From the IMG/VR virus record IMGVR_UViG_2778260992_000001: DNA of 64,000 nucleotides; one strand, given 5' to 3'. The position numbers and the translations under genes are program-made. The stretch's first letter is position 1; each line of letters begins with the position of its first letter. The notes under the pieces were generated by a model. That model made no database searches, was not told the DNA's origin, and saw nothing but the letters and a program-made list of their open reading frames with translations. Below are positions 425 to 47,911 of the stretch, piece by piece. Source of the DNA: a virus (lineage: Duplodnaviria; Heunggongvirae; Uroviricota; Caudoviricetes).

Positions 425-455
425 ATGATTCCATACCTACTATGTATGGAATCAT
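425..455. other. 12-bp perfect inverted repeat with 7-bp spacer (candidate recombinase core site)
   Basis: ATGATTCCATAC-ctactat-GTATGGAATCAT, about 100 bp upstream of the tyrosine recombinase gene. Confidence 0.4.
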
Positions 456-508
456 TACTGAAAATGAGTTACTTTTACTCTTGATCCTATAAGAATCTAT
501 GCCTAATA

Positions 509-528
509 TACTGTTTACTTATACAGTG
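509..528. promoter_or_regulatory. LexA (SOS) box-like site upstream of recombinase gene
   Basis: TACTGTTTACTTATACAGTG matches the CTGT-N8-ACAG consensus with an AT-rich spacer. Confidence 0.5.
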
Positions 529-554
529 AATCGGCGTAACTCGGTGATTGTCAT

Positions 555-1658
555 ATGAAAAATAGCTTTGACAGAGCGCGCGCTGCGGAGAACACCTCAA
601 AAGAGGCGATTGAGTATCTCGAAAGAGCATCTCAAATGCAGGCCGTTATGATCTCGCAGGTTAGCAATGACATGAGATTCTCGGACGCTTTCATGTTATT
701 CACTCGCTTATCTCTGCTGATAACCAGACGTCGGCCAGAGATCGCTGTTCATTGTATTTTGATACATGTTTTGCCGCACATTGCCGATGTAAAAGTAAGT
801 GACATTAATAGGTTCATGGTGAACCAGCTGGTCAACCCACTAATACTGGATGGCAAAATTGTTATGGGCCGCCGCGTTTTCTCTCTGATGAAGCAGTTCC
901 TTAGCTGGTGCGCCTTCCAGGGGATGATAGACGTGTCACCGTTAAACGATATGTCACTAAACAAAGTTGCCGGTGGCGCAAAGCCCACACCTCGCGAGCG
1001 GAAGCTGACCGACGCAGAGGTATGGGTGTTCTGGAATATATGGGACTACTTCAATGTGTGCGCTGGTACAAAATGGGCGGCCAGGCTGTGTCTTGTATCA
1101 GCAAGACGACCTGACGAAGTACTGCGGGCTAAAAAAAGTGAGTTCAATCTTAAGCGTGGGGTTTGGAATCAAGGCAAGAGAAACAAGTCAGCACGTGAGC
1201 ATTCGCTGCCTTTAAGCACATTGATGCGCACATGCATTGAAGAGTTGTTCGAATACGGTAAAGACAGCCAGTGGCTCGTGCCTTCGAATAAAAAAATCGG
1301 GAAAGACCTTCCTATGTCTAAAGTGGCAATAGCCCAGGCATTACGTCGTATTCTGGAACGACCAGAACTGATGGAGCTTGAGCCATTTACACCCCGAGAT
1401 TTGCGCCGTACTGCGCGTAGTTACTTCCCAGCATTAGGCATAAGCCAGGAGGTATCACGCAAAATCATGAACCACAGTCTTGAGGGGATAGATCGGGTCT
1501 ACGACCGGCACGATTATATGGACGAGATGCGAGACGCCTTAGAAAGTTTCTCGACGTACATCGCATCAATCGTAGAGCAACCGGATTTAGACGAAATTGA
1601 CCACAAATTCAAGGGAGATCGTCTATCAACAGAGCTTATTCGTGTAAATTTTTCATAG
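555..1658 (+). CDS. tyrosine site-specific recombinase (phage integrase family)
   Basis: C-terminal catalytic region PRDLRRTARSY ... RVYDRHDY typical of P4/CP4-57-type integrases; N-terminal region atypical. Confidence 0.7.
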   Translation: MKNSFDRARAAENTSKEAIEYLERASQMQAVMISQVSNDMRFSDAFMLFTRLSLLITRRRPEIAVHCILIHVLPHIADVKVSDINRFMVNQLVNPLILDGKIVMGRRVFSLMKQFLSWCAFQGMIDVSPLNDMSLNKVAGGAKPTPRERKLTDAEVWVFWNIWDYFNVCAGTKWAARLCLVSARRPDEVLRAKKSEFNLKRGVWNQGKRNKSAREHSLPLSTLMRTCIEELFEYGKDSQWLVPSNKKIGKDLPMSKVAIAQALRRILERPELMELEPFTPRDLRRTARSYFPALGISQEVSRKIMNHSLEGIDRVYDRHDYMDEMRDALESFSTYIASIVEQPDLDEIDHKFKGDRLSTELIRVNFS

Positions 1659-4805: not shown

Positions 4806-6041
4806 ATGACGACTACTGCACTGCAAAATGAAAAAAATCATTCTGATTACCTTGTTTGCAAGTGGTGCGGAAAATCATTTCACTATTTTAAGTCCCATGT
4901 AGCCAATGGTAATTGCGAGGGCATTCCTGAGTCAGTAAAAGATGCCGATCCTGACACCGTACTGAAAATGTACACAACACAGTTTCCAGATGAGCCAACG
5001 CTATCGAAAAAGGCACTTGATGCAATTCAAGCTAAACGTGCCGAGCAAAAAAGCGAAATGGCCAAATCATCTGGCGTGACCAGTAGCCCAGGCTACACAG
5101 GCACAGTTGAGTACAAGACAGATCTGGTCGCAGCTCACGAACTGCTAAATGTAACGGTGAAAGAACTCGGAACAAAACGTGGGACGCCGCTCATGGTTAG
5201 CGTCAACGTCAATACGCCGTTTCCAGAGTTCGTTCCAGAAGTGAAGAAGGGATACGTATATGGCGACTTCGAACTGATCAAAGACATTTTCATGATGCTT
5301 GAACTTGGCATACCTGGCTATTTGTGGGGTCATGCAGGAACAGGCAAATCTTCATTGCCTACACAACTATGTGCTTTGCTCAATCGTCCGTTAATCCGTG
5401 CCCAACATACAGCATCAATGGAAGAGGCTCATGTTACGGGACAAATTCTGGCGCGTGATGGCTCTACGTATTTCGAGCCTGGCTTGCTTGCGCTCGCAAT
5501 GAAGCATGGCTGGGTTTACCTCGCGGATGAATACGACTTTGCGTTTCCACAGATTCTTGGCGTGTATCAGCCAGTGCTGGAAGGTGAAGCGTTGGTCATC
5601 AAAGAGGCGACTCCAGAATGGCGTCGCATTACTCCGCATGAACGGTTTGCTTTCATTGGCACTGGCAACACGAACGGATCTGGTGATGAAACCGGCTTGT
5701 ACCAGGGTACAAACATCCAGAACGCCGCGAACTTTTCGCGTTTTGGCATCGTTTCGAATGTGAAATACATGAGCAAAGAGGCAGAGATCAACATGTTGAT
5801 AAATGCCGGTATCGTGGATGAATACGCAGAAAAGATGGTTAAGTTTGCCGGTATCGTTCGCGATGGATACGAAGAACACCTTATCAGTCAGCCAATTGGC
5901 CCTCGTGAACTTTTGTTGTCGGCCAAGATTGGAATGATGCGAGGCGACTTTGTGACAGGTATTGAGCGTTCTTTCATTAACAAACTCCCTTCAGCTTCTG
6001 CGCAAGCGGCACGTGAAGTTGTTCAAAAAATATTTGGTTAA
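4806..6041 (+). CDS. CobS-like / MoxR-family AAA+ ATPase
   Basis: Walker A GHAGTGKS, Walker B-like VYLADEYD; partner of the vWA protein. Confidence 0.7.
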   Translation: MTTTALQNEKNHSDYLVCKWCGKSFHYFKSHVANGNCEGIPESVKDADPDTVLKMYTTQFPDEPTLSKKALDAIQAKRAEQKSEMAKSSGVTSSPGYTGTVEYKTDLVAAHELLNVTVKELGTKRGTPLMVSVNVNTPFPEFVPEVKKGYVYGDFELIKDIFMMLELGIPGYLWGHAGTGKSSLPTQLCALLNRPLIRAQHTASMEEAHVTGQILARDGSTYFEPGLLALAMKHGWVYLADEYDFAFPQILGVYQPVLEGEALVIKEATPEWRRITPHERFAFIGTGNTNGSGDETGLYQGTNIQNAANFSRFGIVSNVKYMSKEAEINMLINAGIVDEYAEKMVKFAGIVRDGYEEHLISQPIGPRELLLSAKIGMMRGDFVTGIERSFINKLPSASAQAAREVVQKIFG

Positions 6042-6221: not shown

Positions 6222-9200
6222 ATGAAGGCACTGATGGTTCGAACTGACTTCTCACTTGGGGAGTCGGCTCTTAAAGCAGAAAACGCGGTGAAGATTGCCA
6301 GAGAAGCTGGCTACACCGCTGTAATTTCAGCAGATAGCATGAATATTGCGAGTGTTATTCCACTACAACGTGCCGCTGGTGACGACATGGCGGTTATTTG
6401 TGGTGTGAAACTAAACATCGTTGATGATCCCACATACGAGCACCGGGCTAAACTTGTTAAAGAATCTAAGGGATGTATGGAATCATTAGAGCGAGGACGT
6501 AACTACTCGTTTACCGCTCTAATTAAAAATGAGCAAGGATATCGCGACATCTGCGAACTAATGACGGTGGCCAACACACGAGAACAGTTCTACTTTGTAC
6601 CGCGTCTCTCGCTCGAACAGTTGGTTTCTACATATGCCAAAGGCAACATCATCCTGCTCACTTCCGACATCGGTAGCGTGTTCCAACGCAACGATTTTGC
6701 AAAAATCATAAGCACACTGATTACAGCGGGTGGAAAAGACAACTTCTATAGTGTGGTTTATCCGCACCCTACCCCATTCTACGACCAGATTAACGTCCGG
6801 GCGATGAAAGTCGCCAGCGCACTGAAAATAGAGCCAGTAGCGTTCTATCCCGCTTATTACGAATCGATCGACGATGCAGACATTAAAGACATTGCGCACA
6901 TGGTTATGAACAACATCAAAATCGACCAGCCGCATCGTCTGCGTATCCCCCACCAGCGAGATAACGCCGTCAATGGTCGCCGCCATCTCCTTGAGGCGCT
7001 TAAAGCCTTCTCCGTTCGCATGGATGTGCCGGTAACAGCTGCAATGGCCTCAACAACGCAGGATACCATTATCGATGCCTGCACATGGCGCTGGCATGAA
7101 TTGCCACCAGCACTGCCAAAGATGGCAGACGACGAGCCTGCAACGCTGATGAAACTGGCCGTTGCTGGGCTGCGTAAACGTCTTACCACAAAAGAGTTTG
7201 GCTACACACCACCGGCTTCTGAGAACAGGATTTATGTTGAACGGCTTAAGTACGAAATGGACACGCTTACTCGCCTGGGATTTTGTGGTTACTTCCTGAT
7301 GGTACGCGATCTGATGAATCACAGCCGTGAAGCTGGCATTCCTGTCGGGCCTGGTCGTGGCTCCTCCGCTGGCTCTCTGGTGGCATGGTGCATAGGTATA
7401 ACCAACGTCGATCCTATCCGTCACGGTCTTCTGTTTGAACGTTTCATCAACCCTGAGCGTCTCGACTTGCCGGATGCGGATTTGGACTTCAGCCAGGCAC
7501 GTCGCCATGAAGTGATCGAGTATCTGAATGAACGCTACGGCGAAGATTACGTTGCGGGTATTCCGAACTTCACATATCTGGGCGCAGCCTCTGCACTACG
7601 TGACACCGCTCGTATTTATGGTGTGGAGTCCGCAGATATGGCGGTATCAAAAGAACTGAAGAACGTCGAGGATGATAGCCTTCCACTGGAGGAGCTGCGC
7701 GAACAACTGGCAAGTCTCGACAAATACGCGACAAAATACCCTGATGCATTCAATGCAGCCTGCAAGTTACAAAGCCTTATGCGTGGCTTTGGTAGACATG
7801 CGGCAGGGATGATCGTAGCAGGTGTTCCTCTGACAGAACGTACACCGGTTGAGCGCCGTGGTGACGCGCGTTGTATCGCATTTGACAAGCGTTACTGCGA
7901 GGCTATGGGCCTAATTAAGCTGGACGTGCTTGGCCTGGCAACTCTCGATTTGCTCGATAGTGCAAAACGCTACATTAAAGAGAACACAGGTGAAGATATC
8001 AATCTTGATGCCATATCTCTTGAAGATCGCAAGGTGCTGGATGGTTTTGCTGCTGGGTACACTCAAGGTGTTTTCCAGCTTGAATCAGGCCCAATGCGCA
8101 AGCTGCTTAAAGATTTAGGTGGTGGAATTGAGCCAATGAGCTTTAAAACGGTCGTCGCTACGACTGCGCTCTTCCGGCCGGGGCCAATTCAGTCAGGCAT
8201 GTTGGATGACTATGTTTCTGTAGCCAAAGGCTTTATGACGCCGGAATCATTACACCCCGTTCTTGATGAGCTTACCGCAGAAACCAACGGTGTGATTCTC
8301 TATCAGGAGCAGACGATGAACGCGACCCGATTGCTTGCCGGCTTCACAATGGCTGAAGCTGACGGCGTTCGTAAAGCGATCGGCAAAAAAGATATGGAAA
8401 AAATGAAGAGCATGGGCGAGAAGTTCATCGTTCAGGCTCAAGCTGGCTGGATAGACGTTGAGCTGGAAGATGGCACTACACAGCGCATTCACCGTGCGGA
8501 ACATTTTAAATGCGAAGACGGAACTCTGAAAACTGTCGAAGAGGCACTTGAGCACGGCGCAAAACTACCTATAAACGCAGTACGCGTGACAGCGTCACAC
8601 CCAGGGCTATCAGAGATGAAAGCGAAGGAGATCTGGACCGCATTCGAAAAAAATGGTGCCTACCAGTTCAACAAATCACACTCTGTTGCTTACTCCTTAA
8701 TCAGTTATCAATCTATGTGGTTGAAAACTCATTATCCCGCAGAGTTTTTCGCTGCTGCTCTTACTATTCTTGGTGAAGATAAACACCAGGGGCTGGTTAA
8801 AGATGCGCTGACCTATGGCATTCGCGTATTGCCACCAGACGTTAATGTGTCATCTAACCGAATAGAGATCCGCACGCTTGAAGATGGCAGCCAGGTGCTG
8901 TTAGCGCCTTTCTCTGCTGTGAAGGGGTGTTCAGAGAATGGCTGCCAAGCCATCATGAGAGCGCGTGAAAAAGTTGGAGGTAAATTCGAGTCACTGGCGC
9001 AATTCGAAGAAGCTGTCGAGAAACGTGCCTGTAATAGTCGAGTACGCGAATCACTGCAAAAAGTAGGGGCGTTTGCATCCATTGAGCCTGGTAGTCTGCC
9101 AGCAACTGATCCAGAGCGTCTCCGCGACCAAGCAGAATTGATGGGAAACCTTGTCATAGACGCAGTTAAAGCCTCACGTCCGTTTGAAATGAACCCCAAA

Positions 9201-9740
9201 CGATCGGCTGAAATTAACGTGCTCATGACACGGATGGCGGCTGAAATGGGTTTAGGTGATGAACTAATCCGCCCCAGCATTGGTATTAAGCCGAAAATCA
9301 TGATCATTCTGGACAATGCGAACGGCAATGATGCTCGAACCGGTTACTTTATGGAGAACGGATACGACGATTTTAAGGCCAAGTTGCTGACGGCCGGAGA
9401 TTTGCGTATGGGCGATCTCTATGTCACAGGCGTTTGCAAGAAGGTTAAAGACAAAGAAAAAGACTACACCAAAGACGAGATCGGCCAGTTCACCGACTTT
9501 ATGCGTGAAGAGATCAATCTGGTGCGTCCGACCTATGTTCTGACGTGTGGTAGTCGGGCGACGTCGCTCTTCAACAACAAGAGCAAACCATCCGACCTGG
9601 TTGGACGCAAAGAGTATCTGCCAGAGCTGGATGTGACCGTTTTCTACGGCTTTAACCCGAATATTTTGTACTTTCGTCCAGAGGAAGGCGAGAAGCTGGA
9701 AGCAATTCTGGCAGAGGTAGCGGAGACTATTAGCAAATGA
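6222..9740 (+). CDS. dnaE: DNA polymerase III alpha-type (DnaE family) replicative polymerase
   Basis: 1172 aa; N-terminal PHP-like region; conserved GPGRGSSAGSLVAWCIGIT and LDLPDADLDF motifs of Pol III alpha. Confidence 0.9.
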   Translation: MKALMVRTDFSLGESALKAENAVKIAREAGYTAVISADSMNIASVIPLQRAAGDDMAVICGVKLNIVDDPTYEHRAKLVKESKGCMESLERGRNYSFTALIKNEQGYRDICELMTVANTREQFYFVPRLSLEQLVSTYAKGNIILLTSDIGSVFQRNDFAKIISTLITAGGKDNFYSVVYPHPTPFYDQINVRAMKVASALKIEPVAFYPAYYESIDDADIKDIAHMVMNNIKIDQPHRLRIPHQRDNAVNGRRHLLEALKAFSVRMDVPVTAAMASTTQDTIIDACTWRWHELPPALPKMADDEPATLMKLAVAGLRKRLTTKEFGYTPPASENRIYVERLKYEMDTLTRLGFCGYFLMVRDLMNHSREAGIPVGPGRGSSAGSLVAWCIGITNVDPIRHGLLFERFINPERLDLPDADLDFSQARRHEVIEYLNERYGEDYVAGIPNFTYLGAASALRDTARIYGVESADMAVSKELKNVEDDSLPLEELREQLASLDKYATKYPDAFNAACKLQSLMRGFGRHAAGMIVAGVPLTERTPVERRGDARCIAFDKRYCEAMGLIKLDVLGLATLDLLDSAKRYIKENTGEDINLDAISLEDRKVLDGFAAGYTQGVFQLESGPMRKLLKDLGGGIEPMSFKTVVATTALFRPGPIQSGMLDDYVSVAKGFMTPESLHPVLDELTAETNGVILYQEQTMNATRLLAGFTMAEADGVRKAIGKKDMEKMKSMGEKFIVQAQAGWIDVELEDGTTQRIHRAEHFKCEDGTLKTVEEALEHGAKLPINAVRVTASHPGLSEMKAKEIWTAFEKNGAYQFNKSHSVAYSLISYQSMWLKTHYPAEFFAAALTILGEDKHQGLVKDALTYGIRVLPPDVNVSSNRIEIRTLEDGSQVLLAPFSAVKGCSENGCQAIMRAREKVGGKFESLAQFEEAVEKRACNSRVRESLQKVGAFASIEPGSLPATDPERLRDQAELMGNLVIDAVKASRPFEMNPKRSAEINVLMTRMAAEMGLGDELIRPSIGIKPKIMIILDNANGNDARTGYFMENGYDDFKAKLLTAGDLRMGDLYVTGVCKKVKDKEKDYTKDEIGQFTDFMREEINLVRPTYVLTCGSRATSLFNNKSKPSDLVGRKEYLPELDVTVFYGFNPNILYFRPEEGEKLEAILAEVAETISK

Positions 9741-13772: not shown

Positions 13773-14846
13773 ATGGCAAAAGGAAAATCCGCACTGGCAC
13801 TTGCTCTGAAAAAGAAAATCGGTAGCAACGACGAAATTCAGAAAGTAACTCATTGGATTGATACAGGCTTTCCACCGTTAAACAAAGCTATTTCTGGTCG
13901 TTACGATGGCGGCTTCCCATGTGGTCGTATCGTCGAAGTATTCGGTCCTCCAAGTGCAGGGAAAACGTTCCTTGCAACAGCAGCGATGATCTCCGCTCAA
14001 AAACAAGATGGTCTGGCGGTATTCCTCGATCATGAAAACAGTTTTGACGTTGGCCTGGCTGTAGCCAATGGCCTGAACGCAGATGAGGATGACGGTCAGT
14101 GGGTATACAAGCAGCCAGATACCTTCGAAGACTCTGTAGAGTTGATCGGCACAATACTTAAATTGGTTCGTGATGAAGAGCTTATCCCCGAATCAGCACC
14201 TATCTGTATCGTGGCTGACTCTCTTGCGTCTATGGTTCCGAACTCCAAAGCCGAGAAGTTCGAAAAGATGGCTGAAGGCACTGCCAAAGACAAAGATCAG
14301 CTAAACATGAACGACAATACGGCACTGGCTCGTGCGACGAGTGCGAACTTCCCTACTCTGGCTTTGTGGGCACGCAAATACAACGCCTGCATCATCTTCT
14401 TGAATCAGGTTCGCACAAAAATCGGTGTAATGTTTGGCGACCCTACTACGTCGCCAGGTGGAGATTCACCGAAGTTCTACGCTTCTGTACGTATCCGTCT
14501 TGGTGCATCGGTGATGAAGGATGGTAAAGAGAAGATCGGCCAGGACGTAGGCGCAGAATGCATCAAAAACAAAGTTGCACCACCGTATGGCAAATGCACC
14601 TGGAAATTCTACTTCGATCCTACTCGTGGCCTCGACGTTATCGAATCGCTCGTCGAGTACATGCTGGAAGAAGGATACCTGCCAAAGAACGCCAGCGGGC
14701 GAGTTGAAATTGGTGACAAGAAATACACCAAATCGCAGATCGTCGAGATGTATCGGGAGAAGCCACTGGCTGAAATCATTGCGGCTTTGCAGGCAATCGA
14801 CGACCGAAGAGCAAAAGACAACCCCACCGAGTCAGTAGAAGAGTAA
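13773..14846 (+). CDS. RecA/UvsX-family recombinase
   Basis: Walker A GPPSAGKT in RIVEVFGPPSAGKTFLA; RecA-like length and core. Confidence 0.75.
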   Translation: MAKGKSALALALKKKIGSNDEIQKVTHWIDTGFPPLNKAISGRYDGGFPCGRIVEVFGPPSAGKTFLATAAMISAQKQDGLAVFLDHENSFDVGLAVANGLNADEDDGQWVYKQPDTFEDSVELIGTILKLVRDEELIPESAPICIVADSLASMVPNSKAEKFEKMAEGTAKDKDQLNMNDNTALARATSANFPTLALWARKYNACIIFLNQVRTKIGVMFGDPTTSPGGDSPKFYASVRIRLGASVMKDGKEKIGQDVGAECIKNKVAPPYGKCTWKFYFDPTRGLDVIESLVEYMLEEGYLPKNASGRVEIGDKKYTKSQIVEMYREKPLAEIIAALQAIDDRRAKDNPTESVEE

Positions 14847-47485: not shown

Positions 47486-47505
47486 TACTGTATGCATATA
47501 CAGTA
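47486..47505. promoter_or_regulatory. LexA (SOS) box
   Basis: TACTGTATGCATATACAGTA, perfect CTGT-N8-ACAG palindrome 17 bp upstream of the umuD-like start. Confidence 0.75.
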
Positions 47506-47521: not shown

Positions 47522-47911
47522 ATGGGCTTCCCTTCTCCTGCGGCGGATTATGCTGAGAGCCGTATTTCTCTTGATCAGCAGATAATTAGACATCCTTCAG
47601 CGACCTACTTCATGAGGGCAGCTGATAGTCATCATCGTGAGGGAATATTACAGGGTGCATTGCTGGTGGTCGATTCCTCACTTACCCCGGTTGATGGTTC
47701 TCTGCTTGTATGCGCTCTGGATGGGGAATATCGCGTAAAAAGATACCGGAAGTATCCACGTCAGCATCTGGAGGATTTAAGAACCGGTAAGAAGGAAGCA
47801 TTGCCAAAGGATGACGATGGATGCACGGGCAGCAATGCCGTGTTTGGTGTGATCACTCACATTATCAACGACGCAAGAAGTGGCGAGTTTGATGATTGTC
47901 CCGTGATGTAG
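47522..47911 (+). CDS. UmuD-prime-like SOS mutagenesis protein (P1 HumD-like; S24 LexA-type fold)
   Basis: GFPSPAADYAESRI ... HPSATYF ... VDGEYRVKR aligns with the UmuD C-terminal domain but lacks the N-terminal arm; 129 aa; LexA box upstream; no umuC partner adjacent. Confidence 0.7.
   Translation: MGFPSPAADYAESRISLDQQIIRHPSATYFMRAADSHHREGILQGALLVVDSSLTPVDGSLLVCALDGEYRVKRYRKYPRQHLEDLRTGKKEALPKDDDGCTGSNAVFGVITHIINDARSGEFDDCPVM

Follow-up and report, generated by a model that had tools for sequence, protein, structure and literature searches.

A conserved palindrome upstream of the tyrosine recombinase gene of SSU5-like phage-plasmids as a probable Cre/loxP-like multimer-resolution site

What is the palindrome in front of the tyrosine recombinase gene of an Escherichia coli phage-plasmid for, and is it the site of the enzyme encoded beside it? 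The question is raised by a 64,000-nucleotide (nt) stretch of Caudoviricetes DNA (IMG/VR record IMGVR_UViG_2778260992_000001; the whole stretch is called the window below), in which a tyrosine recombinase gene (int; protein Int) is preceded by a perfect inverted repeat and a LexA-type box. Megablast showed 93–100% identity between the first 2.4 kb of the window and E. coli SSU5-like phage-plasmids, the matching relatives being Escherichia phages CMS-2020a, Cyrano (pLF82) and PhiR41_1 together with about 190 plasmid records of nearly full length. The window itself is an SSU5-like phage-plasmid of E. coli; pG749_2, the closest complete plasmid, was analysed separately, since the two are not the same plasmid past these first 2.4 kb. 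The comparisons reported here indicate that the palindrome is very probably the cognate site of Int. The two probably form a self-contained, Cre/loxP-like multimer-resolution system of the lambda/P4 lineage under SOS control.

The initial annotation had described the repeat as two 12-nt arms around a 7-nt spacer, and this description was exact: arms ATGATTCCATAC (425–436) and GTATGGAATCAT (444–455) enclose the spacer CTACTAT (437–443), and one more complementary base on each side extends the pairing to 13-7-13 (424–456). The site lies 98 bp 5' of the int start codon and has the following parts, clade A being the Int lineages defined below.

401–415: semi-conserved A-rich motif TAAAATTCAAAAAAC (family consensus approximately cAGAaTTtAAAaaa), 9–23 bp left of the site
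424–436, + strand: left arm AATGATTCCATAC; its 11-mer TGATTCCATAC is invariant in clade A
437–443, + strand: central region CTACTAT, 7 bp, asymmetric, AT-rich, of the form n-TA-n-TA-n
444–456, − strand: right arm GTATGGAATCATT (given in + strand letters), a perfect inverted copy of the left arm

For perfect 13-bp arms set exactly 7 bp apart, the expected number in 64 kb is about 1e-3. In the window, however, 22 inverted repeats have arms that are 11 nt or longer and lie no more than 40 nt apart, so the repeat by itself proves little and had to be judged by its conservation. Several of the 22 resemble terminators, with a G+C-rich stem followed by a T run.

Across loci, positions 2, 3, 5 and 6 of the spacer were conserved and positions 1, 4 and 7 were variable. 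The palindrome runs on within the spacer, and the spacer is asymmetric in every case; this 7-bp centre is presumed to be the overlap region in which crossover would occur. The family consensus reads approximately TTTR-TGAYTCCAKAC-nTAnTAn-GTMTGGARTCA-YAAA. Its arms measure 11–15 bp. In their outer part, individual sites show many g/t and a/c mismatches and symmetry emerges only in the consensus, a pattern that favours recognition by a symmetric pair of proteins over a hairpin. The minimal-site plan of the Cre/loxP-like class, inverted arms of 11–15 bp around an asymmetric centre of 6–8 bp, was found here and recurred in 177 loci. The A-rich motif emerged when unique flanks (75 from clade A, 58 from clade B) were profiled for consensus and information content. 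It persists even where the DNA farther left is unrelated, and it is possibly an accessory or bending element.

As a single strand, the site folds at −11.2 kcal/mol (z = −8.15), a value equalled by none of 200 shuffles. This stable hairpin, together with a helix-turn-helix (HTH) gene annotated as a 'putative repressor' beside int, would fit a palindrome unrelated to Int, acting as a terminator or hairpin or as an operator of the neighbouring HTH protein. We consider such an unrelated role extremely improbable, and each of its forms was rejected. A terminator or structured RNA is contradicted by the lack of a T run after the repeat, by the position of the real grx terminator (347–368) and by an Rfam search of positions 1–2600, which was empty. 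For a hairpin maintained by pairing, six loci have mismatched arms, beside the consensus-only symmetry of the outer flanks. For an operator of the HTH protein, the HTH gene is missing from about 50 site-bearing loci.

To assess the linkage between site and enzyme, we fetched 64 loci, one genome per species from 64 species, by Int homology alone. The results showed the same palindrome with a 7-bp centre 5' of int in 63 of the 64, and the remaining locus holds only an int fragment. The distance from the right arm to the int start was 41–149 bp in the loci with both measured. A reverse search of IMG/VR with the site pattern returned at least 120 matches. Among the 120 matches listed, int stood beside the site in 113, three were cut at the locus edge, three had no int within the stored stretch (one of these bears an Rfam-confirmed group II intron between the promoter and the place where int should start, and the other two share its sequence there), and L184 was the sole true exception, having no int. 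The L184 element is a site-like palindrome, TGACTCCAGAC-CTCGTGA-GTCTGGAGTCA, at 5271–5299 in an unrelated viral contig, and no int homologue was found in its 10.9-kb locus.

The arms also follow the enzyme. Both arms carry TGATTCCATAC in 114 loci, with Int proteins 56–100% identical to that of the window (clade A), and both carry TGACTCCAGAC in 57 loci, with Int proteins 40–53% identical (clade B); six loci have mixed arms. Arm class thus tracks the Int tree, the two arms changing together with the Int clade. Furthermore, int is the only gene common to all loci, the HTH gene, cobT, cobS and dnaE being absent from about 50 of them. Replicons of Pantoea, Rahnella and Erwinia have site and int without any phage genes in the vicinity. 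In Pantoea vagans (a replicon of 508 kb) and in Rahnella (one of 723 kb), int is a lone gene amid metabolic, TonB-receptor and fimbrial genes, and the records of four further loci name them as plasmids (pPANA1, pC3_1, pA and one from Erwinia rhapontici). The int–site pair is long maintained, also on non-phage replicons. The proposal that repeat and recombinase form a cognate lox/dif-type pair in a plasmid prophage is supported by this co-occurrence, by the joint change of arms and clade, by the int-only linkage, and by the copy number and breakpoints described below.

Three Chimaeribacter species each carry two paralogous int–site pairs on different contigs (L007/L060, L008/L052 and L009/L056), one pair with TGATTCCATAC arms and the other with the unequal arms TGACGCCAGAC and GTATGGAGTCA. 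This difference in arms may keep the two replicons from cross-reacting.

The recombinase gene itself was confirmed as an open reading frame (ORF) of the predicted length.

555–1658, + strand: int, encoding a tyrosine recombinase of 367 amino acids (aa), identified by Pfam, alignment and an AlphaFold2 (AF2) model

The Pfam domain Phage_integrase (PF00589) matched Int with an E-value of 4.7e-10 (39.9 bits against a cut-off of 27.1); Phage_int_M, the central domain typical of P4-type integrases, matched at 1.1e-4, under its cut-off, and NCBIfam gave a PRK09692-like domain match. The Int family comprises about 110 clusters at 44% identity or more, of which all named members are Enterobacterales and many lie on contigs of 100–120 kb. 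In a 20-member family alignment reaching down to 43% identity, R185, K211, R284 and Y316 were invariant and H307 was present in at least 90%; in a 66-row alignment that included six outgroup integrases, R185, R284 and Y316 remained invariant, with K211 and H307 each in at least 90% of rows. The AF2 model (predicted local distance difference test 86.6, predicted template-modelling score 0.78) is a two-domain clamp with a core-binding and a catalytic domain. Its best solved match in Foldseek was lambda Int on COC' DNA (E-value 2e-6, template-modelling score 0.59), and Tn1549 Int, XerH and IntI were also matched. Int is probably an active tyrosine recombinase.

The initial annotation had left open whether a profile search would place the protein with Cre or with P4 integrases. 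P4-type relatives proved nearest, whereas homology to Cre went undetected: a profile search of all PDB sequences, Cre included, returned nothing at an E-value of 0.01 or below, and the Foldseek values against Cre chains were 0.04–0.2. The next relatives beyond the Int family, at about 30% identity, carry the arm-binding domain PF13356. In Int itself, residues 1–70 had no Pfam match, and in the precomputed Pfam data PF13356 occurred only in relatives at about 24–34% identity; in the AF2 model, residues 1–60 are all-helical, with no beta sheet. Int descends from the lambda/P4 integrase lineage as an arm-less offshoot and is not a relative of Cre by descent.

To assess copy number and replicon type, we searched 5,426 complete E. 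coli genomes by megablast with a 71-bp probe around the site. The probe matched 207 genomes, in every case on a plasmid and at one place per genome, and at megablast sensitivity it matched no place on any chromosome. PLSDB yielded 181 places in 180 records, and no record in PLSDB or the E. coli genomes had attL/attR-like twin sites. The check for a second copy of the repeat, which the initial annotation had called for in the element and in host genomes, thus gave one place per E. coli genome; within the 64-kb window no second full copy was found, the only partial copies being a half-site at 6472–6487 and a degenerate one at 1161–1171. In pG749_2, Int is the sole annotated site-specific recombinase in the PLSDB gene table, which is incomplete. 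Because the element is a low-copy plasmid prophage with exactly one site, multimer resolution is the most likely job of the pair. Earlier work counts the tyrosine recombinase among the persistent genes of the SSU5 group (PMC7969092).

These data also bear on whether Int is a classical integrase, with the palindrome as the attP core for integration into a chromosome or replicon. That its nearest sequence relatives are P4-type integrases and that databases annotate Int as a 'site-specific integrase' would suit this role. However, the arm-binding domain is missing, the E. coli survey found neither a chromosomal copy nor twin sites, Pantoea replicons have retained the pair vertically, as a lone gene, and SSU5-like elements are treated in the literature as non-integrative (PMC12977533). 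An integrase role is therefore very unlikely and, for E. coli, largely refuted; the related suggestion of a P4-integrase-like enzyme acting at another att site found no support, given the absent arm-binding domain and the lack of an E. coli chromosomal copy.

Traces of exchange were found at the outer edge of the left arm. Megablast homology of the window to PhiR41_1 and to CP054387 begins at 424 and 423, respectively, and some E. coli plasmids match the window only from 422–424 onward. Among locus pairs whose right flank is collinear over at least 250 bp, homology on the left ends 0–3 bp from the arm in 317 pairs and runs on for at least 250 bp in 166, and the opposite asymmetry (a break on the right with a collinear left flank) was seen in 1 case. 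Int proteins at least 98% identical to that of the window adjoin seven unrelated left flanks. In Cyrano, the cargo left of the site encodes a 184-aa protein, and the gene is reported as a highly expressed moron, at 723-fold over background (PMC9928086); in PhiR41_1, the cargo comprises a large ORF and an AraC-type regulator. On its far side, the replaced DNA of Cyrano ends within grx, and that of PhiR41_1 ends where the ligase gene starts, beside an insertion sequence remnant; no second site was found at the far cargo border of either element. Two co-resident elements would produce such a mosaic by recombining once through homology and once at the site. Comparable mosaics are known from res and cer sites.

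These flanks raise the alternative that the site is a capture point at which Int inserts or swaps adjacent cargo modules in the manner of an integron platform. The seven unrelated flanks beside near-identical int genes, the nature of the cargo in Cyrano and PhiR41_1, and the LexA control described below, which parallels that of integron integrases, would all accord with it. A capture point is nonetheless quite unlikely, given the single full site per element, the cargo with no second bounding site, the failure to find cassette-like repeats, and the fact that the two-crossover route yields the same pattern.

In PhiR41_1 (L192, 14096–20509), a 6.4-kb stretch replaces the ligase–tRNA–grx region of other members, running from just inside the ligase gene, beside the mobile-element remnant, to the edge of the site, and it has its own isolated half-site at 14623.

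The centre of the site was also compared in orientation. Relative to int, six types of spacer are found in either orientation, and at least three pairs of close relatives differ by a flip in place with homologous flanks on both sides: L002 (3003–3031) versus L114, L135/L171 versus L166, and L003 versus L006/L116. Conservative recombination between properly aligned sites cannot yield such flips; template switching at the palindrome could invert the spacer and keep the arms identical. The flips suggest that the orientation of the site relative to its neighbours does not matter, and this indifference fits a lox-like site that lacks directional accessory sequences.

Upstream of int, the following regulatory features were identified, together with a second LexA box far to the right.

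481–509, + strand: predicted sigma-70 promoter of int, with −35 TTGATC (481–486), 17 nt, and −10 TAATAT (504–509)
509–528: LexA-type box TACTGTTTACTTATACAGTG, with CTGT-N8-ACAG at 511–526, overlapping the −10 and the presumed transcription start
47486–47505: perfect LexA box TACTGTATGCATATACAGTA, 17 bp 5' of the umuD-like gene
47522–47911: umuD-like Peptidase_S24 gene (UmuD/HumD-like), 129 aa

The CTGT-N8-ACAG sequence noticed earlier is present upstream of int, and its conservation supports it. The box matches 16 of the 20 positions of the TACTG(TA)5CAGTA consensus, with CTGT and ACAG intact. Three copies of the bare motif are present in the window, where 0.8 would be expected, and shuffling gave at least three in 7 of 100 cases; by count alone the box is therefore insignificant and had to be judged by conservation. 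One of the other two copies is the perfect box 5' of the umuD-like gene. The box before int has a fixed offset of 51–54 bp from the right arm throughout the unique promoters of lineages whose Int is at least 81% identical, and also in one lineage at 58–59%. Its inner bases vary (TTTACTTAT, TTTATACAT, TATATAAAC, TATATGCAT and others), with CTGT and ACAG kept in most; three sequence types have one or two mismatches in these contact bases. The box is absent from all clade-B loci and from one 59–61% lineage with a 45-bp leader. For the promoter that the box was said to cover, hexamers matching 8 of 12 consensus positions can be read; a scanner requiring 9 of 12 reported none in 300–700. The hexamers hold their position in lineages with Int 58–100% identical.

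Because a perfect box precedes the umuD-like gene, the element clearly uses host LexA, and this second box would serve as a built-in positive control for the SOS wiring of the element. The close relative Cyrano is induced by ciprofloxacin and is present at about 5.5 copies per cell (PMC9928086). SOS control of such a recombinase had been called unusual, which holds for a plasmid resolution system, where LexA control would be new, but not for tyrosine recombinases as a whole, since integron integrases are LexA-controlled (PMC3108266).

The predicted −35 hexamer TTGATC (481–486) contains a GATC (Dam) site, which is kept in most box-bearing lineages and reads TTGACC in the 58–59% lineage. The cre gene of P1 has a Dam-sensitive promoter. 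In L133 (13247–13472), a group II intron (Rfam RF02005, 182.7 bits) lies between the promoter and the expected int start, beginning GTGCG directly after the ACAGT of the LexA box, and its sequence recurs at this point in L153 and in L154, the latter from a different phage-plasmid lineage. Homing of the intron to the palindromic LexA box is possible.

Beyond the full site, exact arm copies extended by AT[C], TGATTCCATACAT[C/T], stand isolated, as half-sites of 14–16 bp, at four orthologous places in clade-A phage-plasmids only: where a small ORF begins, upstream of the tRNA cluster, inside int and inside dnaE. In the window, two of these were located.

6472–6487, − strand: half-site AATGATTCCATACATC (− strand letters) inside the dnaE-like gene, an exact arm copy pointing toward the full site
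1161–1171, − strand: degenerate half-site TTGATTCCAAAC (− strand letters) inside int, antisense to codons V-W-N-Q

The first two places lie 1.2–7.3 kb upstream on the + strand (for example, at 979 and 1991 in L001), and the int and dnaE copies are antisense. Taken as a set, the half-sites were seen in lineages with Int 56–100% identical, and the surrounding flanks diverge. The dnaE half-site occurs at the orthologous place in lineages with Int 59–100% identical, within codons G-C-M-E-S-L, and its codons GGA TGT ATG GAA TCA are frozen while the flanks diverge. The half-site inside int is exact (TGATTCCATACAT[C/T]) in relatives with Int 56–88% identical and has decayed in the lineage of the window. 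In pG749_2, no half-site copy was found outside this neighbourhood; clade-B replicons keep the int–site pair and have no isolated half-sites; and by eye no degenerate partner arm was seen beside the half-sites. All four point toward the full site, which for four independent positions has a chance of about 1 in 8 and is not significant.

By analogy with the dispersed elements of phage SPbeta, the half-sites may be extra Int-binding sites. The SPbeta protein MrpR (YopR) is a temperate-phage protein with a recombinase fold that acts as a repressor, binds the 15-bp element SPBRE dispersed at several positions, and has lost recombination (PMC10516654); it appears in the Foldseek list for Int (8a0a_A, E-value 5e-3) and offers a possible model for the half-sites. 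Palindrome and half-sites might accordingly be operators through which Int mainly regulates its own promoter and neighbouring genes, with little or no recombination. The four conserved places with exact arm copies, none farther than about 7 kb from the site, would suit such a regulator, and in many lineages we read a −10-like hexamer 12–14 bp right of the arm, so that the arm would overlap the −35. An operator function alone is nevertheless unlikely. MrpR retains three of seven catalytic residues (PMC10516654), whereas Int keeps the nucleophile Tyr, both Arg, the Lys and the second His; the site has full crossover geometry, with its asymmetric AT-rich 7-bp centre; flank exchange takes place at it; and clade-B replicons hold the pair and lack half-sites. 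Autoregulation and recombination can also coexist. We likewise see only a slim chance that Int is a catalytically competent recombinase doubling as an SOS-triggered regulator, which through the half-sites would reprogram or reorganise the replication and lysogeny region; such action might have left its mark in the flips of the 7-bp centre.

In the multimer-resolution account favoured here, two Int monomers would bind the two arms, and strands would be exchanged across the asymmetric 7-bp centre. Dimers and multimers arising from homologous recombination or replication would thereby be returned to monomers, as Cre/loxP does for P1. As a side effect, co-resident phage-plasmids would recombine at the site, making it the fixed border of variable cargo. 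Transcription of int would start from the promoter just right of the site, where host LexA would cover the −10, keeping Int low in the quiet lysogen and raising it during the SOS response.

Several points weigh against this account. The data do not tell a crossover site apart from a binding site used for regulation alone. The conserved half-sites kilobases away are superfluous to a simple resolution model and hint at further roles of Int. The position of the first His of the canonical active site is R281 throughout the phage-plasmid and megaplasmid family. The predicted int promoter, at only 8 of 12 consensus positions, was missed by the consensus scanner. Selection protecting an essential site beside a plastic region could partly explain the breakpoints. 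The RepB gene lies 17 kb from the site in pG749_2, with no obvious tie of the site to replication or partition genes. The IMG/VR loci are biased, having been found through the site pattern, and many loci are close relatives, so that the counts are not independent. The chromosome survey by megablast needs a 28-nt exact word, which a diverged attB would escape. As to R281, a basic residue at the first-His position is tolerated in related enzymes.

Comparison with known systems places the pair as follows. Like Cre/loxP of P1, it belongs to a plasmid prophage and consists of one tyrosine recombinase and a short site near its own gene, with two 13-bp inverted arms, an asymmetric AT-rich centre, one site per genome and expected dimer resolution. 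Unlike Cre/loxP, it has a centre of 7 bp instead of 8 bp, a LexA box in the promoter and conserved half-sites, and its enzyme has no detected sequence relation to Cre and the weaker Foldseek match noted above. The multimer-resolution role of Cre/loxP is on record (PMC7969092), and phage-plasmids in general may carry recombinases for dimer resolution (PMC7969092, PMC12977533).

The P4/lambda-type integrases, such as that of CP4-57, are the nearest relatives in sequence and fold and share the core-binding and catalytic plan. Their lambda-type members have an overlap region of 7 bp, the length of the centre here. They differ in that Int lacks the N-terminal arm-binding domain and a chromosomal target and is plasmid-borne, and in that the site here is a perfect palindrome with no arm-type repeats detected nearby. 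In ResD/rfsF of F, Rsd/crs of Salmonella virulence plasmids, TnpI/IRS of Tn4430, XerS/difSL and XerH/difH, the recombinase gene stands beside its resolution site. That site separates the gene from its upstream neighbour, so binding there can autoregulate the gene. With these plasmid, transposon and single-recombinase Xer systems the pair shares the gene directly beside the site and the XerH fold match; no accessory direct repeats were seen here between site and gene. IntI likewise has a LexA box over the promoter of a tyrosine recombinase, with recombination raised in the SOS response (PMC3108266), and matches Int in fold; unlike the IntI system, the present one has neither attC-type folded sites nor a cassette array, and its site is an ordinary double-stranded palindrome.

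In the searchable literature, we found no paper defining a site or role for the recombinase of the SSU5 group, and the arm sequences returned only chance primer and siRNA matches and no relevant paper. SSU5-like phage-plasmids, which carry genes for resistance and virulence, are commonly found in E. coli, Klebsiella, Salmonella and Yersinia pestis (pMT1). The site is now defined for them, and the same pair serves very large replicons of Pantoea, Rahnella and Erwinia; this offers a testable account of how such replicons stay monomeric and of why the cargo region always starts at one fixed point. If the LexA link is true, it would tie plasmid housekeeping, or the exchange of phage-plasmid modules, to DNA damage as well as to antibiotics, ciprofloxacin among them. 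Should the 37-bp site be enough for the pair to work, the pair would make a new lox-like tool whose two arm specificities occur naturally.

The remaining features of the neighbourhood, in gene order, are these.

98–343: grx, first in the gene order
347–368: terminator of grx, left of the palindrome
1653–2039, − strand: HTH gene, 128 aa, convergent with int
Right of the HTH gene: a 70-aa ORF, followed by cobT-like, cobS-like and dnaE-like genes
6222–9740: the dnaE-like gene

The HTH protein had no Pfam match above cut-off and no S24 domain. The 3' end of its gene (1653–2039, − strand) overlaps the end of int by 6 bp, and its Cyrano orthologue, CYRAN_45, is described as a 'putative repressor' and is expressed in the lysogen (PMC9928086).

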